Positions 1,976-13,090 of a stretch of 29,806 nucleotides of DNA are shown one piece after another. Each line of letters opens with the position of its first letter. Within the stretch, counting starts at the first letter, position 1. Location: positions 1 to 29,806 of the forward strand of contig DXAT01000041.1 in assembly GCA_019116965.1 (NCBI GenBank), read 5' to 3'. A program made the position numbers and the translations under genes. The notes under the pieces were generated by a model. That model was not told where the DNA came from. It searched no databases and saw only the letters and a program-made list of their open reading frames with translations. This stretch comes from Candidatus Coprenecus pullistercoris (lineage in GTDB: Bacteria > Bacteroidota > Bacteroidia > Bacteroidales > UBA932).

Positions 1976-1990
1976 TATCCGCCGCTTTCA
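1958..1990. terminator. GC-rich hairpin overlapping the kinase stop codon, lying between convergent genes. Possible weak bidirectional terminator.
   Basis: GCGGCGGA-N12-TCCGCCGC 8-bp stem followed by TTTCAG. No long T-tract. Confidence 0.35.
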
Positions 1991-2013
1991 GTCAAACTGA
2001 AATCATATTGATG

Positions 2014-2694
2014 TTATAAGAGTATGTCCATCAGTTCCTGAGCGTCTTCCAGTGCTTCTTTGGCGTCCTGGAGGTCCTGCTCGAGATCTTCGTCAATGGT
2101 TTCATCGAATACATCCTTCAGGTCCTCCTCTATGCTTGTAGTGGATGTATTTCCGCTGTCATCGGATACCCTGTAGTAGGCGTAGATGTCAAAGGCAATA
2201 TCGAAATCTGCAATCTGGTCGATGATGCCGGTCTCGCCTAACAGGGCATAGCAGAAAGTCCAGTTGTAGCTGTCGCCTACGCTTGACCAGTTCAGCATTT
2301 TCTCCAAGTTTTCTATATTGACGAGTTTCATGTATATGCTTTCTCCGTCTGCATTCTTGATCGGATCACCCTGTGTGTCGTAGATCTGCAGTTCGAAATC
2401 CTCAGCCGATACCGATGAGGCCCAGGAATCCGGGAAATCCTTGATGACCTGAGCATATACGGATACATAGAGTTTGTCGTCTTTCACATAGAACTTGTAG
2501 GAGCCGTCCGGTACCGAGATGTAATCGTCTGCGTCATAAGTCTCGCTCTCTTCCGTGTCGGAGTTCTCATAGCAGATATCTCCGTAAAGCTCGACATCTC
2601 TGACGGCTACCTCTTTTGAGGTACCTCCTCCGCAGGATGTGGCAGCCATGACGGATGCGGCCGCCGCAATGATTGTGATAAAAGTTTTTTTCAT
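2014..2694 (-). CDS. Acidic lipoprotein, hypothetical.
   Basis: Signal peptide plus lipobox Cys (MKKTFITIIAAAASVMAATSCGGG). Highly D/E-rich C-terminal half. Confidence 0.7.
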   Translation of the reverse strand: MKKTFITIIAAAASVMAATSCGGGTSKEVAVRDVELYGDICYENSDTEESETYDADDYISVPDGSYKFYVKDDKLYVSVYAQVIKDFPDSWASSVSAEDFELQIYDTQGDPIKNADGESIYMKLVNIENLEKMLNWSSVGDSYNWTFCYALLGETGIIDQIADFDIAFDIYAYYRVSDDSGNTSTTSIEEDLKDVFDETIDEDLEQDLQDAKEALEDAQELMDILL

Positions 2695-2714
2695 CTTTAT
2701 TTAAATATTAAGTG

Positions 2715-4538
2715 TTAAAGTTGCTTTGCCTTTGTTATGTCGAATGATTCCGCACACAACCTCATCTCATTGTTGTATTTGATGCTGATCTGGTAGATTA
2801 TGGACGGATCCTTTTTCTTTTTCCCCTTCTTTATGATATTGCACAATACTGTCCGGTTGTCGGTATCCACATCGACAATCTCATATCCGATGATATCGCA
2901 GAACGGTTTGAGCCGGTCTGCAAAATCGGCTTGCCAATAAGATACTGTAGATTCGGTATAGAAGAAATCTTCGCACGAACCATTGTCTGTTGTGCTGTAA
3001 GCAATCTTTGATGCTTTGCTGGCATCTACCATGAATTCAAAGGGAGCGCGTAATGAATAGACGGTAATTTCCTTTGATATATTTTTCAATGTCGTGTTGT
3101 AGTCATTGATAGAATTCGTCTTGATGATAACTCTTTGCGAAATGTCAGGACTATAAGATAAAAGGCAGTAGTTGTCATTAAGTTCCATGAGCTGTAAGTC
3201 CTTGGAATCGCGCAGTGCAGAGGAAATAGAGCGCAGGATTTCCGAATCGCTTAAGTTCATTCCTAATTTGGTGGCTGTGGCTTTGCCCGAGTTTATTGAC
3301 TGCTTTATGTATGATCCGGCATCTACCTGATCGGAGCCGAAAATGGCTTGGCTCAATGTAACGGCCTGTGAGGCAATGGCTGCATTGATGCAGGAGTCTA
3401 CCGCATTCATCTGTTCCGAAGTGAGATATGCCTTGTGTTCATAGTTGGGAAGCTTTATTGACGGATTCTGTAGATAGTTTTTGAAACCATCCCAGTTCCT
3501 GATACTTATGTACGCCTGGTCTTCATCTGTATTGATGCACCAGTAAATATCGCCCTCTTTGCTGATTAGCGGATCAGAGTATCTATCGTCCAGTGTGAAC
3601 TTTTTGACGGTTTCAACCAGATATGCGGCTCCCTCATCGCTGATGTATGCTCTTTCAGTAAGATATTCATATTTTGGATTGTTCCTTTTGCTCAGGTTGT
3701 ACCCTTGCAGGCTTTCGAAATCGAAACCGTCCTTGAGGGACAATATAGCCATCCTGGCGTAGTTCCCGATGGTCAGACTGTCTTGTCTTATTGTATATCC
3801 GAGATTCAGCAGCTGCTCCTTGTTTATTTCCCCGGCAGCATATTTTCTTGACATCTCGGTGACGGCCGGTTTTGTAGAGGATTTTCTGGTCGTCTTGCTT
3901 ATCAGGACTCCGTCAATAAATTCGTATTTGTCGTTACCTATTATCCATGTTCCGGTAGGGATTCCTTCCGGGTTAAGGCTTCCCTTCACGGAAGTGGTCA
4001 TGCCCTCCCTGCCATATTTGTTCGGGCCGATGTATTCGTATGCGCCGGTCAATATTCCGTTGTCATAGTGAGCATTCAGCAGGACGGCTCCCCAAATGTC
4101 GTAATCTTCTAAGGAAATATTGTTTTTGACTTTGAAATCGCCATGTGGTATTCCTCCCTTTATGAAGTTTCCCGAAAAATTACATTGCATATTTACTGGA
4201 GTGTTGTTTAGACTTCCGGAGACTTTGCATGATGATGACGCCGCTCCATAGAGCCCGCCATTGGAAAATACCGCATCCAGTTTATATCTTACATCAAGAT
4301 TGCCCCAAAGTGTAAGGCGATTGAATTCATAAGATTCTTGTGCATTGATATTCAGGCTTCCGTCTTTGATGTTTGAACCGTTTTCTCCAATGATGTAATG
4401 ATAATTCGCTTTACCAGTAATAAGTCCGAGTGATGTGGCTTTGGTGTAAGTGACTGTGTTTTGTTTGCGTTGGGCAAAGGATGTCCCCAAGCACATCAGG
4501 CATGCAGTGCCGAGCAATAGGATTTTCTTCATTTTCAT
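2715..4538 (-). CDS. Secreted hypothetical protein (607 aa) with Gly-rich, MORN-like short repeats.
   Basis: N-terminal signal peptide MKMKKILLLGTACLMCLGTSFAQ. Long uninterrupted ORF. 20-bp spacing to the downstream lipoprotein gene suggests an operon. Confidence 0.75.
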   Translation of the reverse strand: MKMKKILLLGTACLMCLGTSFAQRKQNTVTYTKATSLGLITGKANYHYIIGENGSNIKDGSLNINAQESYEFNRLTLWGNLDVRYKLDAVFSNGGLYGAASSSCKVSGSLNNTPVNMQCNFSGNFIKGGIPHGDFKVKNNISLEDYDIWGAVLLNAHYDNGILTGAYEYIGPNKYGREGMTTSVKGSLNPEGIPTGTWIIGNDKYEFIDGVLISKTTRKSSTKPAVTEMSRKYAAGEINKEQLLNLGYTIRQDSLTIGNYARMAILSLKDGFDFESLQGYNLSKRNNPKYEYLTERAYISDEGAAYLVETVKKFTLDDRYSDPLISKEGDIYWCINTDEDQAYISIRNWDGFKNYLQNPSIKLPNYEHKAYLTSEQMNAVDSCINAAIASQAVTLSQAIFGSDQVDAGSYIKQSINSGKATATKLGMNLSDSEILRSISSALRDSKDLQLMELNDNYCLLSYSPDISQRVIIKTNSINDYNTTLKNISKEITVYSLRAPFEFMVDASKASKIAYSTTDNGSCEDFFYTESTVSYWQADFADRLKPFCDIIGYEIVDVDTDNRTVLCNIIKKGKKKKDPSIIYQISIKYNNEMRLCAESFDITKAKQL

Positions 4539-4559
4539 ATTCGATTAATTGTGAGTTGA

Positions 4560-4622
4560 TTGGTATATGCAAAGTTGCAAAAAGCGTCGTTTGGTTCAAT
4601 GGCCCTTTTTGGCCCTAATTCC
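4560..4622 (-). repeat. Truncated 3' part (~60 bp) of the X/20-mer repeat family. The 20-mer GGCCCTTTTTGGCCCTAATT (4601-4620) encodes the last 7 codons of the PD-(D/E)xK gene. A cAacTTTG -7-like box sits ahead of the 2715..4538 gene.
   Basis: About 55 bp align with 5680-5735 (tatgcaaaGttgcAaa...ggccctttttggccctaattcc). Confidence 0.7.
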
Positions 4623-5345
4623 TGCTTGGATGGTGGTAAGCAGGTATCTGAATCTGTCACCGTTCTTTGTAAGTGCGGTGATGGCAGTGTCGTCCCAGTG
4701 GCACAGGTAGCTGCCATGCAGCACGAAGTCCGGATGAGATCCGATGATTTTTTCAGAGATCTTTCCCCATTTCAGTAATCCGGGACCAATCCGATTCCCT
4801 TCATGTGTGGAGAATGCGCGATAGCTTACATCTGTACTGGGACCGTTCCAGTAGATTCTGTTGTTGGTGACGAGCAGGGCAACACCGTCGGTCATATTTG
4901 GGTAGCATTGATTCAAGGCCTCGATGCGGCGTATGTCTTTCCAGTAGTTGTACATAATGATATCTCCTGCGCCTTGGTTCTTAATGATCCGGCAACCTGT
5001 TTTCAAATCTTCTCCGAAACGGGAAGGTTGATTGATAACAGGGCATGTGGCATACTTAAATTCTACGGCGGCAAACCGGCCGTCTTTTTCCACCACCACA
5101 TCGATGGACAGGTCATTGTCCCATGGAAAATCTAAGCTCTCTTTTCCTACTTTCAGATGGCGGACGCATAATTCTTCTTTCGGCACGGCATACTCCATGT
5201 CCACTCTGTCGTAATGCTTCTTTTCTTTGAGCCACATGGTTATCCGCACCTGCAGGTCTCTTTCATTGAAGATGAGTTCCTTGTTGCTTTTCAGAAAATC
5301 CTCCAGGTCGCAACGCAGCAATGTCAACAGGTTGCTGTTTTTCAT
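4596..5345 (-). CDS. Stand-alone PD-(D/E)xK (restriction-endonuclease-fold) nuclease family protein.
   Basis: Motif SIDVVVEKDGRFAAVEFKY (D ... E-x-K with 13-residue spacing). Single-gene cassette bounded by the 20-mer repeats. Lower GC than the core genes. Confidence 0.65.
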   Translation of the reverse strand: MKNSNLLTLLRCDLEDFLKSNKELIFNERDLQVRITMWLKEKKHYDRVDMEYAVPKEELCVRHLKVGKESLDFPWDNDLSIDVVVEKDGRFAAVEFKYATCPVINQPSRFGEDLKTGCRIIKNQGAGDIIMYNYWKDIRRIEALNQCYPNMTDGVALLVTNNRIYWNGPSTDVSYRAFSTHEGNRIGPGLLKWGKISEKIIGSHPDFVLHGSYLCHWDDTAITALTKNGDRFRYLLTTIQAGIRAKKGH

Positions 5346-5398
5346 GTCGTTTAAAATTAAATGTGCAGGCGGACTCCTATCTCTGCCAATTTATTAAA

Positions 5399-5735
5399 AA
5401 GAAAGTGTGGAGCCGGTCCGTCTGTCTTTGAAGAGGTTCTGACAAAACCCGAATGTAGGCAGGCTGAACAATCCCCACACTCGTATCGATTGTGAGAATA
5501 CACAAGTCAATACAAGTGATGGTGCCGTCGTTGTCCTTACATTCGTTGAAACTGTCAGATTTCTTCAAAAGGACAGTGCGAAAACACTTTCACCAATATG
5601 TCCGCCACATGTTTTGTCACATGGCACTACAAATATACTAACTTTTTCCATAAAGCAGCACCTTGCAGGGATTGTTTCGTATGCAAATTTGCGAATATTT
5701 ATACAGATATGGCGGCCCTTTTTGGCCCTAATTCC
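5399..5735 (-). repeat. Full copy 2 of the ~330-bp noncoding element X plus the 20-mer (5714-5733). Candidate structured 5' leader or recombination module directly upstream of the PD-(D/E)xK gene.
   Basis: About 85-90% identity to 10966-11291 over ~330 bp. The reading frames of the small ORFs inside are not conserved between copies. Conserved hairpin ACTGTC-N15-GACAGT. Long-range helix AACAAUCCCUGCA/UGUGGGGAUUGUU on the minus strand. Confidence 0.8.
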
Positions 5736-6419
5736 GATTCAGGCAAGTATGGTGCAGTTCAAACATCAGCAGTCTGCAGGCATTTTGATATACCGTCGCC
5801 GGTCTTATGGATTATCGGTGTCTTTGGGGAGAGAAAAGGTATAAAACTTTTGGTACACCTCACTATCTGTAATCCGGTAATCGCCATAATGTGCACATAT
5901 TCAGCTGTTTGCTGCCGCAGCCTCATAACAGATACGGCGCTTTTTGCCTGGAATTCGCCTTAATACGGCCTTATCTGTTATGCAGATTTTGACATATGAT
6001 GCTAATATATAGTCATTTACATAAAGAATACAATAACAGATGCTAAGGTCTATTAGGTACGCGCCACGAAAATCCATCTGTCTACACCCCTGAAATCGGA
6101 TGCAACGGTATAATATGTAAGTGCGCGCACCTGATTTTGACAGATGTAATGGATAATCAGTTGGTTGTATTTGATGTAATATGCGCGTACTTTCCGTAAA
6201 TACACCGGCATAAGATGTCGTATGTGATGGATGTGGCAGGGAGGCAGGCTACAAGTCTTTTTGACCGCTTGCAGCCTGGCGCTCCACTCTCTGCCGAGGA
6301 CATGCTCTCTTGTATATGCTCCTTAGTGTGAGTAAGTTCCTATTTGCGACACAGGATAGGTCCCGCTGATATGGCCATGGACTTGGGCCCAGAGTCTTGT
6401 AAAGTGACAGCTGCGGAAT

Positions 6420-7067
6420 TCAGCGGAAAATGCCGAATTTAACAGAAGCGGTAACGCTGTCTCGGAAAGTCTGTCCACCTTTGTAGCGTTGATAATAAAA
6501 GAGGTGATATAAGGTACTGTTCCCTCAATTACGAAATCAGTGATTTCGCAATTAAATGGGTATAATTTTACTCTCCCCGTCAAGCATCTGAATTGGACAC
6601 ATAACCTGATACTTTTACAGCAGGTCAAAGACATACGGGCAAGGTATTGGCGCATGGTGCAATACATTGTGCCCCATTGGAATACCGCTATTTGCAGGAA
6701 GCCATTAAACTTGATGATTACGGCAAACACGGGGCTTTGGCAAACAATTTTACCGAAACCCTCCCTGCACCGGTATCTGGTGATTGAGCTGAAAGACACA
6801 GAGTTCATGCCGGAATATATCGGCAAGCTCAACTTCTACTGTTCCGCCGTGGATGATATACTCTGCCGTGAAGGTGACAATCGCACTATCGGCCTTTTGC
6901 TCTGCAAGACCAAGGACCGCATCAAAGCTGAATATGCCTTGCGCGATATTCAGAAGCCGATAGGGATTTCCGATTATGAATTGGGATAGGCTTTGCCGGA
7001 AGATTTTCGGGGGAGCCTGCCTACGATTGAGGAAATCGAAAACGAATTAGAGGCAAAACAATCCTGA
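6420..7067 (+). pseudogene. Degraded yhcG-like (DUF1016, PD-(D/E)xK nuclease) pseudogene. N-terminal region eroded, with an internal deletion and an in-frame TAG at 6987-6989.
   Basis: The 6540-6989 ORF carries LNWTHNLILL (N-domain motif) fused to YLVIELKDTEFMPEYIGKLNFYCSAVDD...TIGLLLCKTKDRIKAEYALRDIQKPIGISDYEL. The family C-terminus ALPEDFRGSLPTIEEIENELEAKQS continues in frame after the TAG, to 7067. Confidence 0.6.
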
Positions 7068-7353
7068 TATTCAGCAAAAATGTAGGAGAAAGTGGGTCAG
7101 TGGCGGTAGTCGCTGAGACCGAGATTCTTTCCCTTTTGGCTGCCATACCGAGCATGAGCATAATGTCCGGCTTCATGTACTGCAGTAAACCGGATACAAT
7201 TTCCGTTACTTTCCTGAAACTTACCGGTAACCGTACTGCCTTGACCCAATCTTTGAAACTGTCGCAGGATGCTGCCTCTGCGGCGACATCCCACGACAGA
7301 TTCCTGTCCCGGCCTCCGAACGGCTCAGATCCTGTAATCAATACCGATATCAT
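7021..7353 (-). pseudogene. pcp: Truncated pyroglutamyl-peptidase I (pcp) fragment. N-terminal ~85 residues are recognisable, then divergence or truncation.
   Basis: MISVLITGSEPFGGRDRNLSWD...LPVSF...KPDIMLMLGMAAKRERISV matches the Pcp N-terminus (VLLTGFDPFGG...NPSWE...PDIIICVGQAGGR..ITPERVAIN). The remaining ~130 aa are absent. The fragment overlaps the yhcG remnant convergently. Confidence 0.55.
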
Positions 7354-7448
7354 CAGAGCACTATCAACTGTAAATTAACAACATCTAAAACATTGCGTCA
7401 TACCTGTCAGTCGTTATTTAGCCTCTGTCCTCAGTTCATTAATTGTGT

Positions 7449-7793
7449 CTATGTATGCTTGGTCGTAAATCGTATAATTAAAATCATTATTAAAAGTAAT
7501 AATGCATTGACAATGATGTACAATGGTACAGAAAACTCAAAAAAAGCAAAGGTGAAATTAAGGACAAGCAGAATGAATAGAAAGATTCCACCAATAGTGT
7601 GCATGACAATACCGGCTCGCTCTGTATTGGCTTTTAAGGCAATAGTGAACAGGCCGGATACGACAAGTGCTATAAAAGTAGTAATCGTGGCAACCCATTT
7701 AAGGTCCTCAATTTTGACGATGCTGTATTCCCCCCAAGACAGTAATGCTGAGATGGCGACGGTGACTATTGTGTAGAAAATGTCTATTCTCAT
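7449..7793 (-). CDS. Small integral membrane protein (3 predicted TM helices), hypothetical.
   Basis: 114-aa ORF with three long hydrophobic stretches. Its start overlaps the stop of the upstream gene (7793/7795). Confidence 0.55.
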   Translation of the reverse strand: MRIDIFYTIVTVAISALLSWGEYSIVKIEDLKWVATITTFIALVVSGLFTIALKANTERAGIVMHTIGGIFLFILLVLNFTFAFFEFSVPLYIIVNALLLLIMILIIRFTTKHT

Positions 7794-7794
7794 C

Positions 7795-8124
7795 TCAATG
7801 TTTATTCAAGATTATTAATTTCATAATTTCAGGTATGAGTTTCGCCTGTGTCCAGCCGCTCATGCCTGGTTTCCACATTAAGGTGTCTTCTTTTATTTTA
7901 TAAGATGATACCAGTGTGTTTACTTCAGGCTCAGTAATGGGGCCAATCTGAACATTGTCCACGATAGCATAATATTGTGATTCTGTTTTTATGACAGGTG
8001 CTCCTGAACCAGGGGTTTGCATATTATCTATAACATGATTCATGGTCGCAATCATCTGCTGCGCGACGGCCATACTCATGCCGAACTCTAAAAGTCTGTC
8101 TAATGAATTAAACGAGTTGTCCAT
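7795..8124 (-). CDS. GYF_2 (DUF4339) domain protein. Paralog of the C-terminal domain of the SPFH protein.
   Basis: YYAIVDNVQIGPITEPEVNTLVSSYKIKEDTLMWKPGMSGWTQAKLIPEI parallels LAINGQQSGPFSIPQLQQLAQQGKINAQTYVWKPGMSEWIMAGQVDEL in the upstream gene. Confidence 0.65.
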   Translation of the reverse strand: MDNSFNSLDRLLEFGMSMAVAQQMIATMNHVIDNMQTPGSGAPVIKTESQYYAIVDNVQIGPITEPEVNTLVSSYKIKEDTLMWKPGMSGWTQAKLIPEIMKLIILNKH

Positions 8125-8144
8125 ATTGATTCAATTATGTTTGA

Positions 8145-9500
8145 TTATTGAGGCATTGGGGGCATCGGTGGTGGGGGAGGTGTGTTGGGTATAAATATGT
8201 TTTTAAGTTCATCGACCTGACCGGCCATGATCCATTCGCTCATGCCCGGCTTCCAAACATAAGTCTGGGCATTAATCTTTCCTTGTTGCGCAAGTTGCTG
8301 CAGTTGCGGTATGGAGAATGGACCGCTTTGTTGGCCATTGATTGCGAGCATATATGTCGGGATAGGTGGCGGGGGCGGGGTGTTCATGCCGTTTTGCATT
8401 GTCTGACCCATATTATTCATCATCCCTGCCATCTGACTGCCCATGGCTCCTCCCATCATCATGCCGGTCATCATTCCTGCGGCGTTCATGCCTCCTCCGT
8501 CTCCCATATAGCCCATGGCTCCGAGGTTTTCAGCTCCTGCCCGTAGGACACTAGCCTGCTGATCCAGTGCATGGGCCCCTATGAAATTGGTCTCAGTCTG
8601 CAGGCGTTGAGCACGCTGTGCTTCCTGTCGGTTGATACGCAAGGTCTCCTGCGTATTCTCTGCGTTTATAGCCTGTGTATCTGCCATATTCTTTATGCTG
8701 ACTTTGGTCTGTGCCTGGATTGTCTGCGCCTGTTGCATGGCGGTTACATGGCGGAGTTCCATATATCCATCGCTTTCTTTGTCTGGATCTATGCGGTTTA
8801 TATCCACTCGCTTGACATTTACGCCAAAATCTTCAGACAATTCCTTTGACAGCCGTTCTTGGAGAAGGTCTGATATCTCAGTTATTTTCCTTTCTATTTG
8901 CAGGACGGGGATGCCGTTGTCCTGAGGAGCGTTGCTGACAAATGACTTGACATATTTAGTGACGGCATCTTTTATTTGCTTGTTAAAATCTTCCAATGTG
9001 AAATTTATCATCCTGTTCAGCTTTATGAAAGCTTTATAGTCAGATATATTGAAAGTGATACTGCCTTGTACAGCCATCGGTACTGCGAAATCAAGAAACC
9101 GGGGATCAAATACATCAAAGAATGGAATTGTGAACTCGATTTGAATGTTTCGTGCAAGATTTATAAAATATATTTCCGCTTGGAAAGGAGACTCACCTCC
9201 ATAGGCTAAGCCTATAATGTTGGCCAAAACAGGAAAGTTTGCCGTTTCGATGGTCTCGTCATAAGGTCCTTCAATATAGTCTTGGAGTGTTCCGTCTTTT
9301 TGTTTGTACACAAAAACTGCCACTTCTCCGTCTTTTACCCTGAGGCTACTGCCAAAGCGGATGGAATTTTCCCTTGTGGTAGAATTTACATCTTGTCCTT
9401 CCGGTCTCCATTTCCAGACAAGATATTCTTTCTCATCACAGCGGATGACATTCATCATCCCCCCTGATTTTCCCTTTTTGCCAATTCCAAATAGTCCCAT
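8145..9500 (-). CDS. SPFH/Band-7 (Band_7_1, YdjI-like) domain protein with a Gly/Met-rich low-complexity linker, polyproline tracts and a C-terminal GYF_2 domain.
   Basis: N-terminus MGLFGIGKK...VIRCDEKEYLVWKW is typical of YdjI-type SPFH proteins. Coiled-coil Q-rich segment. GAMGYMGDGGGMNAAGMMTGMMMGGAMGSQMAGMMNNMG linker. TPPPPPIPT and NTPPPPPMPPMPQ tracts. Confidence 0.8.
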   Translation of the reverse strand: MGLFGIGKKGKSGGMMNVIRCDEKEYLVWKWRPEGQDVNSTTRENSIRFGSSLRVKDGEVAVFVYKQKDGTLQDYIEGPYDETIETANFPVLANIIGLAYGGESPFQAEIYFINLARNIQIEFTIPFFDVFDPRFLDFAVPMAVQGSITFNISDYKAFIKLNRMINFTLEDFNKQIKDAVTKYVKSFVSNAPQDNGIPVLQIERKITEISDLLQERLSKELSEDFGVNVKRVDINRIDPDKESDGYMELRHVTAMQQAQTIQAQTKVSIKNMADTQAINAENTQETLRINRQEAQRAQRLQTETNFIGAHALDQQASVLRAGAENLGAMGYMGDGGGMNAAGMMTGMMMGGAMGSQMAGMMNNMGQTMQNGMNTPPPPPIPTYMLAINGQQSGPFSIPQLQQLAQQGKINAQTYVWKPGMSEWIMAGQVDELKNIFIPNTPPPPPMPPMPQ

Positions 9501-9505
9501 GTTGT

Positions 9506-10342
9506 TTATATGCTCGGTTGGTTAAATAATGATATTAAAGCCTCTATGCCGCTTGATATTAGACATATCAGTAGGATTATGATTGTGACTTTCCATGCCC
9601 AGTGCAGGCGCTTGAACCATGCAAGAAAGCCAACCCCAATAACTTTTCGTTTAAATCTTGTGTAGTCATCAATAAACGGTTTGAAAATATCATCATTTTT
9701 GAAGCTGAGTTCTGCTTTGTTTATGCATTCCTGATATTTTTTCCAATATGCCATTCTGCATGGATCTGAGGAGTCTGTAATATGCGGCTTGGCGGATGTT
9801 AGAAAATCAAGCAAATCAGCCTTGGCATTTGGTATGGGAAAAGTCTCTATGATATTTATTCTTTTTTTTATATCCTCTACTTCTGATAATTTGTTTGATA
9901 ATTTTTCATAAGACATAGAGGCGTCAATGTTTAGGAACTCGTATCCGCAAGCTGTGCAAACAGGACTGAATGCTTTTACAAGGGCATTGCACTGAGGACA
10001 CCGGCGCACATCTCCGAATTTTTCAGATTTTGGAGCCGATAAATTAGACGGGGCGCTTTTTTTATTATTAATCTGGTTGTATTCGCTTAAGCGTGCATCA
10101 AGCACCATTTCAAATTCATCAAGGTCAATACCTTTTGCCTGGGCTTTTTTGAATAGTATTTGTTTTTCTTTTTCAGTTAAAGTACCGTCTATTATTGCGA
10201 GGTCAATGAGTTTTTCCATTTCTGCATCATAGAGTCCGGTCCGTGTTTGCGAGGATTGTGTTTTTCTCATTGTCATTTGTTGTGACGGAACTGAATTGAC
10301 CTCATCGTACAGTTCTTTAATTATATTTTTTAATGTAGACAT
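9506..10342 (-). CDS. Zinc-ribbon protein with an N-terminal TerB-like/co-chaperone-like helical domain and a C-terminal TM anchor.
   Basis: CPQCNALVKAFSPVCTACGYEF (C-x2-C ... C-x2-C). N-terminal LIDLAIIDGTLTEKEKQILFKKAQAKGIDLDEF. C-terminal hydrophobic VTIIILLICLISSGIEALISLF. Sits 5 bp upstream of the SPFH gene. Confidence 0.65.
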   Translation of the reverse strand: MSTLKNIIKELYDEVNSVPSQQMTMRKTQSSQTRTGLYDAEMEKLIDLAIIDGTLTEKEKQILFKKAQAKGIDLDEFEMVLDARLSEYNQINNKKSAPSNLSAPKSEKFGDVRRCPQCNALVKAFSPVCTACGYEFLNIDASMSYEKLSNKLSEVEDIKKRINIIETFPIPNAKADLLDFLTSAKPHITDSSDPCRMAYWKKYQECINKAELSFKNDDIFKPFIDDYTRFKRKVIGVGFLAWFKRLHWAWKVTIIILLICLISSGIEALISLFNQPSI

Positions 10343-10354
10343 AAGGATTATATT

Positions 10355-10915
10355 TTACAGCCAGGAAAATATTTGATCAAGTTGTCCCAATAGTTCAGAG
10401 TTGCCGGTCTTGTCCTTGATCATCTCACCCAAAAGTTGAAAATCAAGATATAGCTCTTTGCCGATACTCGGCAAAGACTGAGTTATATACTTGACATTTG
10501 ATGATGATGACAGGGCTTCTCTGGCAGTCATTGATTTGACAATATCTGTAATGTTTGTGAGTGATGTTGTTAGCTCAGCTAATTTCCCTGCAAGTTGAGT
10601 GACTTCTTTACCTAAGCCGTATAGTTCATCTATTGATGGCGAGGCACTTTTGTTTTCTGCATTATCTTCAAGATCAAAATAAGTGATATAGAAATTTTTG
10701 ATAATAGGACTGATTCTGATTGTTACATCAGCGATTTCTTTGCAGGTTTTTGCGGCATTGTCAATAATGTCAACCCCGCAGTCTTCTGGTAAGTCAAGAT
10801 TTTGCATTTTCTCAATTCGTTCTTCTGATTCTTCGCACCATTCTAATGACTGGGGGAAAGCCATTTGTTGGAAAGAGAGAATCATAACCAATGTTGCAAA
10901 AAGTGCTCTTTTCAT
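10355..10915 (-). CDS. Secreted hypothetical protein. First gene after element X copy 3.
   Basis: Signal peptide MKRALFATLVMILSFQQMAFPQS. 12 bp upstream of the zinc-ribbon gene. Confidence 0.6.
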   Translation of the reverse strand: MKRALFATLVMILSFQQMAFPQSLEWCEESEERIEKMQNLDLPEDCGVDIIDNAAKTCKEIADVTIRISPIIKNFYITYFDLEDNAENKSASPSIDELYGLGKEVTQLAGKLAELTTSLTNITDIVKSMTAREALSSSSNVKYITQSLPSIGKELYLDFQLLGEMIKDKTGNSELLGQLDQIFSWL

Positions 10916-10965
10916 TACTTTTAATTTTTAGGTCAGTCGGCTCCCAGGACTGACGGGCTTATAAT

Positions 10966-11291
10966 AAGAAAGTGTGGAGCCGGTCCGTCTGTCTTCCAAG
11001 AGGCTCTGACAAAGCCCGAACATAAACAGACTGAAACAATCCCCACACCTGTATCGCTTGTGATGAATACACAACCAATACGGGTGACGGTGCTGTCGTC
11101 GTCCTTACGTTCGTTGAAACTGTCAGATTTCTTGGAAAGGACAGTGCGAAAACACTTTCACCAATATGTCCGCCATGCGTTTCCGTGCATGACGCCACAA
11201 ATATACTAAATTTTCATGTAAACAGCACCCTGTGGGGATTGTTCCGCAGGCAAATATGGGAATATTATTGACAGCCTCCCCGGCCCTTTTC
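10966..11291 (-). repeat. Full copy 3 of the ~330-bp element X plus a 20-mer variant GGCCCTTTTCGGCCCTAATT (11272-11291). Lies between the hipT stop and the SPFH-module operon.
   Basis: Aligns with 5399-5735. Long-range 13-bp helix AACAATCCCCACA (11034-11046) / TGTGGGGATTGTT (about 11234-11246). cAtaTTTG -7-like box on the minus strand just inside the 20-mer. Confidence 0.8.
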
Positions 11292-11321
11292 GGCCCTAAT
11301 TTCGTCAAGCTTTGAGTTGTA

Positions 11322-12263
11322 CTATCCCAGCAGCTGCAGTCTGCCGGCAATTATTTTGATGAAGTTCTGCTGCATGTTCTCCGGAAGGAATGACAACCCT
11401 ATGAACATTTGCCATTTACTGAAGGCATTGTGGAATTTACTGAAGATATTCTCAATGATTTTCTCCTCCAGTCCGCAGGCCGACATCTCGGTGATGAAAT
11501 CAGCCTTTTTGATTTTACGTTTCTTGCCGTTGAGAGTCAATGCGAGTTCCTCGGTGTCTTCCGGCATAACCAACGCTGTGGACAGCATGTCGTATGCCGG
11601 TGTGAGAGTGTAGTTGCCGGCCAGCTTGCTGTAGAGGGAAAAGTTTTTCAGGTGCATATCGGCATTGCCTGTAATCCAGGAAAATACCACCTGCTCCCAG
11701 AAATTGACTAGATCAAGTTTGGGTACGGATGAGTATTTTCTTATGGTTTTCGCTATCTGGCCGTATGAGCCCCGGTATTTATGCTCTGTAAGACGTTCCG
11801 TAAGCTGGCACATGTCTTCCATTGCCAGTTTCCCTCCGTTGGCGGTGCGGTCGATGCGTCTGGTTATATAGCACAGTTCTCTGTCGGCGAAACGTATCAG
11901 GCTGTGCGGGACTACTTTCATTTTGGCCAGTTCAGCCAGATGCATGGTTAGGTCTTCCACTTCCGGAAGATTGCTGAAGCGGTCGGTCTGCGGCTTGAGA
12001 ATGTACCGGCCCCACAGTCCTACGATAGTGAAGCGCTCTTTTCCGCCCGGCCTGTCCTTGCAGATGTCCAGGGACAATTTGGCCTGAACTCCTGTCAAAG
12101 TGGTCTGGCTGCGGATTACCTGCTTCGCAAGGTCAGTGAGATTGTCCCGGGTGTACGGTAGCACCGGAGCCTCGGGAGCTCCGAATATTTTTTTCGCACA
12201 TTCCCTATGAAAATCCTTCTCATTCTCGTGCAGCTCCTTATAGCAGTAAAGACATTTGGCCAT
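11322..12263 (-). CDS. hipT: HipT-like kinase toxin (HipA C-terminal kinase core) of a tripartite HipBST system.
   Basis: 313 aa. HipA-family catalytic loop GNADMHLKNFSL. Lacks the HipA N-terminal subdomain, which is encoded separately upstream. Confidence 0.85.
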   Translation of the reverse strand: MAKCLYCYKELHENEKDFHRECAKKIFGAPEAPVLPYTRDNLTDLAKQVIRSQTTLTGVQAKLSLDICKDRPGGKERFTIVGLWGRYILKPQTDRFSNLPEVEDLTMHLAELAKMKVVPHSLIRFADRELCYITRRIDRTANGGKLAMEDMCQLTERLTEHKYRGSYGQIAKTIRKYSSVPKLDLVNFWEQVVFSWITGNADMHLKNFSLYSKLAGNYTLTPAYDMLSTALVMPEDTEELALTLNGKKRKIKKADFITEMSACGLEEKIIENIFSKFHNAFSKWQMFIGLSFLPENMQQNFIKIIAGRLQLLG

Positions 12264-12265
12264 GA

Positions 12266-12595
12266 TTATTCCTCCTTTTCTGTTATCGGTTCAACACCTA
12301 CAGCTCCTATGCAGTCCTTGCAGCAGGCCAGCAGCAGGGACATGCGGTCCCGTGCGTCAATTTTCCAATTCCTCTCAGCGATGTCAAGCAGCCAGCCTTC
12401 GGGAATCAGGCCGTCGAAAAAGGGAAACAGGACTTTGTCCCTATAGGGTCTGTCGGTCAAAGGCAGAGTAAGACTTATGGCCTCAGCCTTTTCTGATGTC
12501 AGAAATCCGCCGTCATACTGGAATGTGTAGCCGTTTTCATCTTCTGTAAGGATGCCGGCCCTCTCGCCGCGTAGATATACCGTCGCCTGTTTCAT
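12266..12595 (-). CDS. hipS: HipS-like protein (HipA N-terminal subdomain homolog). Antitoxin of HipBST-type systems.
   Basis: 109 aa, MKQATVYLRGERAGILTEDENGYTFQYD resembles the HipA N-terminus. 2-bp gap to hipT. 4-bp overlap with hipB. Confidence 0.75.
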   Translation of the reverse strand: MKQATVYLRGERAGILTEDENGYTFQYDGGFLTSEKAEAISLTLPLTDRPYRDKVLFPFFDGLIPEGWLLDIAERNWKIDARDRMSLLLACCKDCIGAVGVEPITEKEE

Positions 12596-12813
12596 AGATC
12601 ATCGGTGTTTTTGGAGAGAGGGACTGCGCCTACTTCGCTGCCGAATAGGTTGAGAATCAAGTTGACTTTGTCCAGTCGGAGAGTCTGTTTGCCCTGCTCC
12701 AGCTCCCGGACAAAGCGCAGGCCGACTCCGGATTTCTCCGACAGGTCTACCTGAGTCAGGCCGTATTGCTTGCGCATGGCCTTTACGTATCTGGATAAGG
12801 TTGTTTGCTGCAT
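12592..12813 (-). CDS. hipB: HipB-like XRE-family HTH transcriptional regulator.
   Basis: 73 aa, helix-turn-helix LTQVDLSEKSGVGLRFVRELEQGK. First gene of the hipB-hipS-hipT operon. Confidence 0.8.
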   Translation of the reverse strand: MQQTTLSRYVKAMRKQYGLTQVDLSEKSGVGLRFVRELEQGKQTLRLDKVNLILNLFGSEVGAVPLSKNTDDL

Positions 12814-12828
12814 GATTATACCCTTTGG

Positions 12829-12850
12829 GGTACAAATATAACAAAATATT
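12829..12850 (-). promoter_or_regulatory. Putative hipBST promoter (-7 box TATATTTG on the minus strand, 12843-12850) with an overlapping palindrome TACCC-N4-GGGTA (12829-12842). Candidate HipB operator.
   Basis: Bacteroidetes TAnnTTTG consensus 22 nt upstream of the hipB ATG. The inverted repeat overlaps the predicted TSS. Confidence 0.35.
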
Positions 12851-13017
12851 CCAAAGATATCCCCGATAAGGTATAAAATACTTTAAATCTAATATGATTA
12901 TACCCGTTCAGGCGTATTGCCCCAAAAATACATCTTGCCCATAATGGTCTTGGAGATTGTCGAGCGGCGGGAAAAAGAGAAAAGCCCCTGGTGCCTTGTG
13001 GCGCCGGAGGCCTTTTG

Positions 13018-13090
13018 TGATCTGCTTGGGGCTCGAACCCAAGACCCCAACATTAAAAGTGTTGTGCTCTACCAACTGAGCTAGCAGATC
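13018..13090 (-). tRNA. tRNA-Lys (anticodon TTT)
   Basis: Reverse complement GATCTGC-TA-GCTC-AGTTGGTA-GAGC-A-CAACA-CTTTTAA-TGTTG-GGGTC-TTGGG-TTCGAGC-CCCAA-GCAGATC-A gives a perfect cloverleaf with anticodon UUU. CCA not encoded. Coordinates +/-1. Confidence 0.9.

Follow-up and report, generated by a model that had tools for sequence, protein, structure and literature searches.

A covarying RNA structure as candidate 5′ leader and recombination anchor of variable operons in a mosaic accessory region of Candidatus Coprenecus pullistercoris

In Enterobacteria, JUMPStart/ops leaders head variable operons that depend on RfaH, and in Bacteroides the capsule loci are headed by 5′ untranslated regions that depend on UpxY. 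Processive-antitermination leader RNAs, such as HK022 put and Bacillus EAR, and the attenuators of the riboswitch type are structured 5′ leaders as well. Other described systems bring exchangeable genes together at fixed places: integrons have a platform, formed by the promoter Pc and attI, for promoterless attC cassettes, and rAID-1 loci are defined by a 5′ tyrosine recombinase resembling XerD (more than 44% identity to BF9343_RS08045) followed by at least two co-directional genes with a guanine plus cytosine (GC) content of at most 41% (Ross et al., bioRxiv 10.1101/471110). Here we describe a locus of Candidatus Coprenecus pullistercoris (Bacteroidales) on contig DXAT01000041.1 of assembly GCA_019116965.1; the whole stretch that was analysed, 29,806 nucleotides (nt), is called the window. 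Beside a tRNA-Lys gene the window has a low-GC region in which a 20-nt sequence (the 20-mer) occurs three times and a longer one, element X, occurs twice, as copies X2 and X3. We propose with moderate confidence that X is the cis-acting 5′ leader and the recombination anchor of variable operons, and that the region is a mosaic accessory neighbourhood.

By analogy, the closest relatives of X in function would be the JUMPStart/ops and UpxY-type leaders. As in those systems, a conserved non-coding leader stands before exchanged operons that vary between strains and is also the upstream flank for swapping. Their leaders are required in cis for expression, and X may have the same role. X differs from them in being a covarying RNA structure of ~235 nt and not a short ops element, in having no linked NusG paralogue, and in a cargo that does not consist of polysaccharide genes. 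Like antitermination and riboswitch leaders, it has a fold that is conserved, a long helix with a U-rich tract behind it and loops in long-range contact, whereas X has no Rfam match, is much longer and is rod-like. The integron Pc/attI platform and rAID-1 appear to be looser analogues. The former is similar in its fixed promoter and leader, followed at a fixed short distance by interchangeable promoterless genes; however, at this locus there is no IntI, there is no attC at the 3′ ends of the cassettes, each operon has one X, the cargo is multi-gene, and the 20-mer lacks R/L box symmetry. Unlike attC sites, the repeats lie on the 5′ side of the operons, two or three per region. The resemblance to rAID-1 includes the gut Bacteroidales host, the co-directional low-GC accessory genes, a repeated intergenic sequence and the look of gene acquisition, but there is no recombinase here, no immunity genes were recognisable among the genes of the region with Pfam, NCBIfam or PADLOC, and the repeat occurs two or three times rather than before every gene. 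The GC content of the region is 0.44, and the operon that includes an SPFH-domain gene is its only part to get to ~0.41.

Comparative evidence identifies X as a structured RNA of ~235 nt on the minus strand of the window. The RNA folds into a 5′ hairpin and then a rod of ~200 nt, which GAAAGUGU/ACACUUUC close; a U-rich tract comes after the rod. When 18 distinct X sequences were analysed with RNAalifold, 65 pairs were obtained, 22 of them with compensatory changes; with the addition of loci L048, L054, L060 and L061, the numbers were 63 and again 22. The proportion of cells paired in this structure was 98%, as opposed to 35-48% when the 3′ partners were slid by 1-3 columns, and none of 500 column shuffles of the alignment matched the observed value on any of five measures. 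Since there were 175 G.U against 9 A.C combinations in the pairs, it is the minus-strand sense that folds, and the structure would act as RNA. Within one species the central helices exist in two fully compensated versions (for example, CUGAC/GUCAG and GUGGU/ACCAC), and the differences between X2 and X3 keep the pairing. The single-stranded ACAUAUU linker is strongly conserved, and the largest internal loop is ~8 x 6 nt.

A protein-coding function of X was rejected because its open reading frames (ORFs) of 79 and 63 amino acids (aa) are broken by 1-nt indels between lineages, and the substitutions preserve pairs and are not codon-periodic. An identity as 6S RNA was also rejected: the rod-like shape agrees, but X has no large central bubble, occurs twice in the window and lies in variable DNA. 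The Rfam 6S and Bacteroidales-1 models did not match X. Rfam 15, whose families include riboswitches and HEARO, had no match in the window at gathering score. With permissive thresholds there was still none on X2 (E ≤ 1), and in five loci from different lineages no match at E ≤ 5 covered X. Phage and plasmid records had no match to X, and two X blocks had none in IMG/VR. No description of this RNA was found in the literature, and X is a well-supported candidate RNA family outside Rfam, apparently undescribed.

Bacteroides promoters have the consensus TTTG at −33 and TAnnTTTG at −7. Wherever upstream sequence was present, a −7 box of the form TAnnTT(T/A)G was found 43-46 nt before the invariant core of X (36 nt in L008). 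On the other side, a co-oriented ORF begins 47-61 nt past the closing helix in all loci except L013 and L022 (37 nt in L021), and across the loci examined no TAnnTTTG box was found between X and the ATG. The leader between them includes a heptamer, 19-28 nt past the closing helix and usually in the loop of a small hairpin, that is complementary to the invariant X loop CGGCUCC. It is GGAGCCG in X3, L054, L060 and L009, where all seven pairs are Watson-Crick and 0 of 500 shuffles were as good. The main metagenome group has GGGGCCG or GGGGCUG, which form seven pairs including one or two G.U, and L025 shows a double compensatory change, AGACUCC with GGAGUCU. The contact was judged sequence by sequence, since the MAFFT alignment had put the loops in two registers. 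As the main argument for read-through, this contact spans the U-tract, and the functional RNA would therefore extend into the leader of the next gene. With no −7 box in between and a covarying complement past the U-tract, leader and gene would be on one transcript, and expression may depend on the leader. X can be classed from sequence as a structured cis-regulatory 5′ leader, by its covarying structure, the folding of the sense strand, its co-orientation in every locus and the position of the ATG in nearly all of them.

Another complementarity involves the promoter side. The 15-nt sequence GGAACAATCCCCACA (window 11231-11245, just upstream of the −33 region) is the reverse complement of UGUGGGGAUUGUUUC in the interior of X (11035-11049), ~215 nt apart, with the −7 box enclosed between them; the counterpart in X2 is at 5463-5479. 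This pairing is retained in most lineages, often via G.U, with almost no covariation. It could serve transcripts that read through as an alternative pairing, or be what remains of an inverted repeat.

With a 21-nt core of X, 26 metagenome contigs were recovered; L001, L003, L048-62 and the two window copies belong to the family as well. X occurs in more than 40 gut-metagenome loci from at least six lineages. A search with nhmmer for extra or degenerate copies gave one X per locus and two in the window. The first genes behind X are of at least nine unrelated kinds that differ between lineages, among them genes for a secreted protein of 186 or 193 aa, a nuclease-like protein, lipoproteins, a DUF2158-like small protein and other small proteins. 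The strains of the main metagenome group are collinear until 40 nt past X and mosaic beyond. In one human-gut Bacteroidales species (L004-L029), the order is hemN, a divergent AAA ATPase, X, a mosaic region of ~3 kb and an Rpn/PD-(D/E)xK-transposase-like gene. The mosaic region codes for alternative small proteins and for lipoproteins with BIG2 domains and leucine-rich repeats or of the collagen-like kind, and it looks like a strain-variable surface-protein locus. Some loci are unusual. In L013 a 344-bp segment with promoter and X is 100% identical to that of L005 and stands in a different context; after X come a small helix-turn-helix (HTH)-like ORF, a Gabija-like pair (a 570-aa OLD-type ATPase and a 475-aa UvrD-like helicase, assigned by eye only) and an AbiEi-like gene. 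L051 and L052 (X at 23-199 and 71-247, respectively) lack the promoter and the first ~60 nt of X, which comprise the 5′ hairpin along with the closing helix's 5′ strand, and yet the nuclease gene comes next; this X may be a decaying copy or may be expressed from elsewhere. In L021, X is ~6.4 kb from a transfer-messenger RNA gene whose 3′ end faces the X cargo, and either its flanks have spurious GC-rich ORFs of the kind seen in rRNA, or the contig may be chimeric.

The modules into which a preliminary description had divided the region were confirmed as real units, each of them being found alone in relatives. Locus L048 has the order hipB-hipS-hipT-20-mer-X-nuclease (240 aa), followed by two other genes, and is 95% identical to window positions 12780-10963 and 92% identical to 5785-4626. 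By this comparison L048 shows the X2 module in un-duplicated form and hipBST intact. In L054-56, the arrangement hipBST-20-mer-X-SPFH operon, 97% identical to window positions 12878-6821, lies beside gpsA. The SPFH operon follows X in L054-59 at 96-98% identity and in L060-62 at ~73-76%; in the latter lineage, which is ~73% identical and has no hipBST, gpsA is followed after 40 nt by AGGGCCAAAAAGGGCC, X and the operon. L061 and L051 have 99% identity over the 3′ part of X and over a flank with a 238-aa gene, an 89-aa gene and a kinase gene, and between these flanks L061 has the SPFH operon, a pyroglutamyl peptidase gene (pcp) and an ion-channel gene where L051 has the nuclease gene and a 602-aa gene. 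The alignment of the two demonstrates an allelic cargo replacement with its left breakpoint at the 3′ end of X. At the same level of sequence comparison, the window holds two alternative cargo alleles in series, each with its own X. Its tandem order is repeated in independent Logan contigs (L032 equals 11165-5578 and L033 equals 5597-1, both at 100% identity), which break only inside X; when exact proteins of the window were looked up, every contig obtained ended within X or within the tRNA. Positions 1976-12962 form an accessory neighbourhood that is mosaic and prone to recombination, and not an island built by an integrase.

Copies 2 and 3 of the 20-mer are merely the 5′ edge, in minus orientation, of a ~450-bp repeat that consists of a hipT 3′ relic, the 20-mer, the −7 box and X. 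Blocks in 5395-5735 are ~86% identical to their counterparts in 10962-11303. Upstream of copy 2 the homology continues in collinear pieces: 5764-5785 resembles the 3′ end of hipT, 5787-5833 is the junction of hipS start and hipB end (85% identical to 12574-12620), and 5833-5846 resembles the region upstream of hipB. Because the repeat extends into this decayed hipT/hipS/hipB relic, the 20-mer is not the boundary of these copies, and the collinear homology indicates that the duplicated unit was hipBST-20-mer-X, of which the distal hipBST has shrunk to ~110 nt.

We propose that X is a cis-acting 5′ leader that would control read-through or translation, as an attenuator, a protein-binding leader or one of the antitermination type, and that would be needed to express the operon behind it. 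Its conserved sequence may at the same time offer the upstream homology arm by which strains exchange cargo through ordinary recombination. The stacking of two modules in the window, of which the distal hipBST has decayed, could have come about when two alleles recombined or by an insertion of the Campbell type. The core of the 20-mer might bind a regulator of the X promoter, and the 20-mer could mimic a module boundary because insertions would be tolerated only outside the functional unit.

The preliminary description had reported three copies of the 20-mer in direct orientation. The count stands, as GGCCCTTTTYGGCCCTAATT occurs exactly three times where none would be expected by chance, but the third copy is at 11282-11301 and not at 11272-11291. 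The core, AGGGCCNAAAAGGGCCG, is invariant in 11 of 11 aligned upstream regions, including L060-61 of the lineage without hipBST, and is placed ~95 nt upstream of the −7 box of the X promoter. It is absent from the main metagenome group, whose upstream region differs. The 20-mer is made of two direct GGGCC repeats 10 bp apart; a terminator hairpin was ruled out, as the longest possible stem is the 4-bp GGCC and there is no T-run. Nor is it a motif common genome-wide: in one genome each of 185,579 species the exact form was found in only three loci, belonging to Ca. Coprenecus stercoravium (Rikenellaceae) and an uncultured Bacteroidales bacterium, with the X sequence alongside each time. A relaxed form matched viral contigs once, within an unrelated ORF. 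The idea that every module starts with the 20-mer and X is correct for copies 2 and 3 and fails for copy 1, which has in common with them only the 20-mer and a weak, promoter-like similarity over ~65 nt; in L002, too, the 20-mer precedes a gene without X. We infer that the core is an upstream cis-element, specific to its clade, which delimits the functional unit on the 5′ side, and it probably binds a protein. The 20-mer gives no evidence of a new cassette system without an integrase.

Copy 1 lies at the end of the gene for a 249-aa nuclease-like protein. As first described, it encodes the IRAKKGH end of this protein, whose tail reads QAGIRAKKGH before the stop. Of the two explanations offered for it, a cassette boundary inside the ORF or an ORF end created by the junction, the latter proved right. 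The native end in L048-50 is TTIQ (CAA TAA), the homologues are without the AGIRAKKGH tail, and in the window the CAA is followed by GCAGGAATTAGGGCCAAAAAGGGCC, which yields this tail. Copy 1 belongs to a replacement of ~28 nt at the 3′ end of the nuclease gene, with the breakpoint at ~4626. L051-53 have the same order of nuclease and 602-aa genes and a homologous promoter-like spacer, without the 20-mer. On the label PD-(D/E)xK given to the protein, an AlphaFold2 model of mean predicted local distance difference test score 84.5 had PD-(D/E)xK nucleases as all its best fold matches in PDB, but at E = 0.008-0.1 and template-modelling scores of 0.2-0.3. No match was found in Pfam, NCBIfam or PADLOC. 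The motif IDVVVE...VEFK is conserved across the alignment of homologues, the AGIRAKKGH tail is disordered in the model, and the protein is a candidate PD-(D/E)xK-fold nuclease.

The adjacency to tRNA-Lys(ttt) was confirmed, the gene being at 13017-13090 on the minus strand. The variable region meets it at the 17-mer AGCGGCGGGAAAAAGAG, directly after the terminator hairpin of the tRNA gene, whose U-tract it overlaps. The 17-mer is not repeated elsewhere in the window. A tRNA-targeted island is not supported: the 97%-identical relatives hold the block beside gpsA, where ARAGORN finds no tRNA, and the window lacks a tRNA-derived direct repeat. No empty tRNA-Lys site was found among the relatives compared. 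In L002 (Ca. Coprenecus), different DNA starts from the same ~15-nt junction behind the tRNA-Lys terminator, namely part of an ORF found whole in L001, a spacer of 380 nt, the 20-mer and one more gene. The sequence GCGGCGGG(G)AAA(A)GG is common to the tRNA-Lys flank (window 12963-13016; L002 ~826-845) and the interior of a membrane-protein ORF in L001 (~755-770). In L002 the L001 locus seems to have been fused to the tRNA-Lys flank at the 15-mer, by microhomology or a site-specific event. Because the 17-mer overlaps the terminator U-tract, the shared boundary may reflect constraint and not integration.

Elements in which hipBST is targeted to a tRNA do exist. L038-40 resemble the window in having hipBST, with HipT 78-79% identical, beside a tRNA gene where accessory DNA ends. 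However, they have a tyrosine integrase between hipT and tRNA-Phe and Xis-like HTH_17 genes and are without X and the 20-mer, while in the window it is hipB rather than hipT that lies towards the tRNA, and an integrase is lacking. A general pairing of hipBST with X was rejected, since HipT homologues at this level of identity were found in three other contexts without X and the 20-mer. In L038-L041 and L044-L046, hipBST is at the integrase end of a tRNA-Phe element with type I restriction-modification and two HTH_17 genes, and it also occurs in a polysaccharide locus rich in glycosyltransferases. hipBST moves between very different accessory contexts.

Several observations weigh against X as a cis-acting leader and anchor, and some of them speak for other explanations. 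The lineages sampled number ~6, with most metagenome loci from one species. The putative start site, 3′ end and read-through of X are deduced only from consensus boxes and from complementarity across the U-tract, and the loop complement is absent in L021 and L013. In L013, X (~10834-11069, minus strand) is cut at CCACACTT and has no downstream hairpin, with the Gabija-like operon ~500 nt on. A rod followed by U's could equally be the terminator of a free-standing small RNA, and homology ends on the left at the 20-mer in four contexts (the hipT flank, the spacer of L001/L002, the 3′ end of the nuclease gene and the flank with gpsA in L060), a sharp boundary for which selection on a functional unit accounts only loosely; copies 1 and 2, identical over 22 nt, have unrelated flanks and bracket exactly X2 and the nuclease gene. 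The boundary points speak for a site-specific system, integron- or integrase-like, with the 20-mer as core site, a recombinase encoded elsewhere and serial insertion of modules by tRNA-Lys. The replaced native stop of the nuclease would also agree, and so would the comparison of L054 with L060, in which a 2.7-kb hipBST segment lies exactly between the gpsA flank and the 20-mer. Owing to the recurrent boundary and the 22-nt identity this explanation keeps a low probability, and we consider it very unlikely. The homology of copies 2 and 3 crosses the 20-mer into the hipT relic, and the core is conserved, with a constant distance to the X promoter, in the single-copy, non-arrayed L060-62. The motif is a direct repeat and not an inverted-repeat core, its exact form was found in the genome collection only in the three loci mentioned, with the viral match inside an unrelated ORF, and the nuclease-602-aa junction of L051-53 is formed without it. 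The close relatives are not at a tRNA. The absence of integrases and transposases, already stated in the preliminary description, was confirmed in every sizeable ORF of the region with Pfam, NCBIfam and PADLOC; Phage_integrase had no match in sizeable ORFs of the region or its flanks, and no recombinase was found within the 29.8 kb. Of the tandem site-specific acquisition or cassette array proposed at first, the modularity is retained, and the 20-mer as a recombination site that delimits cassettes is not.

The terminator-like end of X is accommodated by a gene for a trans-acting small RNA, or a 6S-like one, with its own promoter and terminator, whose place before variable genes would come only from its use as a conserved recombination anchor or island target. 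Its own −7 box, the strong conservation that includes the ACAUAUU linker, the two copies in one genome, the persistence of X when the cargo changes and the truncated X before unrelated genes in L013 fit this explanation, which nonetheless seems unlikely in view of the constant co-orientation and distance of X and the next gene without a promoter box between them, the conserved covarying complement to the X loop beyond the U-tract, and the failure of the 6S and Bacteroidales-1 models together with the missing central bubble. X might instead act as DNA, as a miniature inverted-repeat transposable element, as an invertible promoter in a 15-bp inverted repeat (GGAACAATCCCCACA / TGTGGGGATTGTTTC) or as an attC-like folded site. 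That X is a long imperfect palindrome, that cargo breakpoints fall at its 3′ end and that a 15-nt complement of its interior lies upstream and encloses the −7 box could be read in this way; but one specific strand folds, as the G.U and A.C counts show, the orientation is the same in all ~40 assemblies, in the DNA of the main group only ~10 of the 15 positions of the inverted repeat match, the ends of the unit show neither terminal inverted repeats nor target duplications, and each locus has one X copy and not an array, all of which makes a role as DNA extremely unlikely. An extension of the leader hypothesis, in our estimate decidedly unlikely, is that X and its ~50-nt leader are the fixed expression platform of a gene-capture system of gut Bacteroidales. 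Promoterless cargo from many sources would be placed at a set distance, and the RNA, perhaps together with a protein partner, encoded in trans and able to recognise GGGCC-N5-GGGCC as well, would license expression and guide exchange, with an integron-like logic and no linked integrase.

The coordinates of the features are collected in Table 1. The lower GC content claimed for the region was borne out (0.443 for 1976-12962, 0.546 in the left flank and 0.527 in the right), and its start was not, since the low-GC variable region begins not at 4560 but at ~1976, at a convergent gene boundary. It is flanked by a Ser/Thr kinase gene on the left and by genes for a ClpC-type ATPase and GyrA on the right. 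The genes for the 607-aa and 226-aa proteins have a GC content of 0.441, and their homologues in relatives adjoin the same kinase gene. The genes are not all on the minus strand, as had been stated: the YhcG/DUF1016 pseudogene fragment is on the plus strand. Domain scans agreed with the earlier identities of hipB, hipS, hipT, the SPFH-GYF protein and the GYF protein. With HTH_3 (1.4e-9), Couple_hipA (3.5e-28) and HipA_C (2.6e-48) in three consecutive genes, hipBST is by gene content a predicted tripartite toxin-antitoxin system; in a search of the region for known defence systems, PADLOC gave weak HipA-like matches only. A deletion of ~2 kb in the window at 7117/7122 was evident from L057 and L059, in which pcp and the ion-channel gene are intact after the SPFH operon. 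Within hipT there is a short tandem duplication at 11414-11450 (ATTTACTGAAGGCATT / ATTTACTGAAGATATT, 21-nt spacing). Upstream of hipB, a palindromic motif occurs twice, at 12815-12835 and 12893-12910 (GATTATACCC-N3-GGGGTA / GATTATACCCGTTCAGG), and is conserved in L003 and L054-56; these are likely HipB operators and are unrelated to the 20-mer. Upstream of them, L003 (3423-3619), L054 (~2280-2830), L055 and L056 have a long inverted repeat (hairpin) of ~200 nt that is absent from the window and gives a weak generic miRNA-precursor match in Rfam.

Table 1. Features of the variable region and its borders in the window (MFE, minimum free energy in kcal/mol)
Feature	Position	Strand	Description
226-aa lipoprotein	2014-2694	-	Low-GC member of the variable region
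607-aa secreted protein	2715-4538	-	Low-GC member of the variable region
249-aa protein	4596-5345	-	Cargo of X2; likely PD-(D/E)xK-fold nuclease domain; last 9 residues junction-derived
20-mer copy 1	4601-4620	-	Followed by a promoter-like stretch and the 607-aa gene; no X
Leader from X2 to nuclease ATG	5346-5391	-	Loop of hairpin 2, GGAGUCC (5371-5377), 6/7 complementary to X2 internal loop (5409-5415)
X2, predicted structured RNA	5392-5629	-	86% identical to X3 over repeat blocks; MFE -87.4, z -6.11
-7 promoter box of X2	5630-5637	-	TATATTTG; Bacteroidetes-type
20-mer copy 2	5714-5733	-	Upstream element of X2 promoter region
hipBST relic	5735-5846	-	Collinear pieces; intact version in L048
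YhcG/DUF1016 nuclease pseudogene fragment	6540-6989	+	Domain scans
Truncated pcp gene	7021-7353	-	What is left of pcp and the ion-channel gene, both intact in L057 and L059
SPFH operon	7449-10915	-	Cargo of X3; same operon behind X in relatives
114-aa membrane protein	7449-7793	-	SPFH operon
GYF protein	7795-8124	-	SPFH operon; domain scans
SPFH-GYF protein	8145-9500	-	SPFH operon; domain scans
Zn-ribbon protein	9506-10342	-	SPFH operon; domain scans
186-aa secreted protein	10355-10915	-	First gene of SPFH operon
Leader from X3 to 186-aa ATG	10916-10957	-	Loop of hairpin 2, GGAGCCG (10938-10944), complementary to X internal loop CGGCUCC (10976-10982)
X3, predicted structured RNA	10958-11196	-	5′ hairpin and ~200-nt rod; MFE -95.6, z -5.75
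-7 promoter box of X3	11198-11205	-	TATATTTG; Bacteroidetes-type
20-mer copy 3	11282-11301	-	Minus strand AATTAGGGCCGAAAAGGGCC; 20 nt past hipT stop codon; upstream element of X3 promoter region
Intact hipBST	11322-12813	-	hipT 11322-12263, hipS 12266-12595, hipB 12592-12813; domain matches
Right border of variable region	12963-13016	-	tRNA-Lys terminator hairpin and U-tract; junction AGCGGCGGGAAAAAGAG (12963-12979)

If X is a cis-acting leader, it would give a common regulatory input to strain-variable genes in abundant gut Bacteroidales. The genes concerned would include those for surface lipoproteins, the SPFH/GYF operon, the nuclease-like genes and the Gabija-like system, and a class of strain-variable loci would be explained as the exchange of cargo behind a conserved RNA anchor. 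As a candidate RNA family outside Rfam, with ~235 nt, 22 covarying pairs and a long-range loop contact, X is directly testable.

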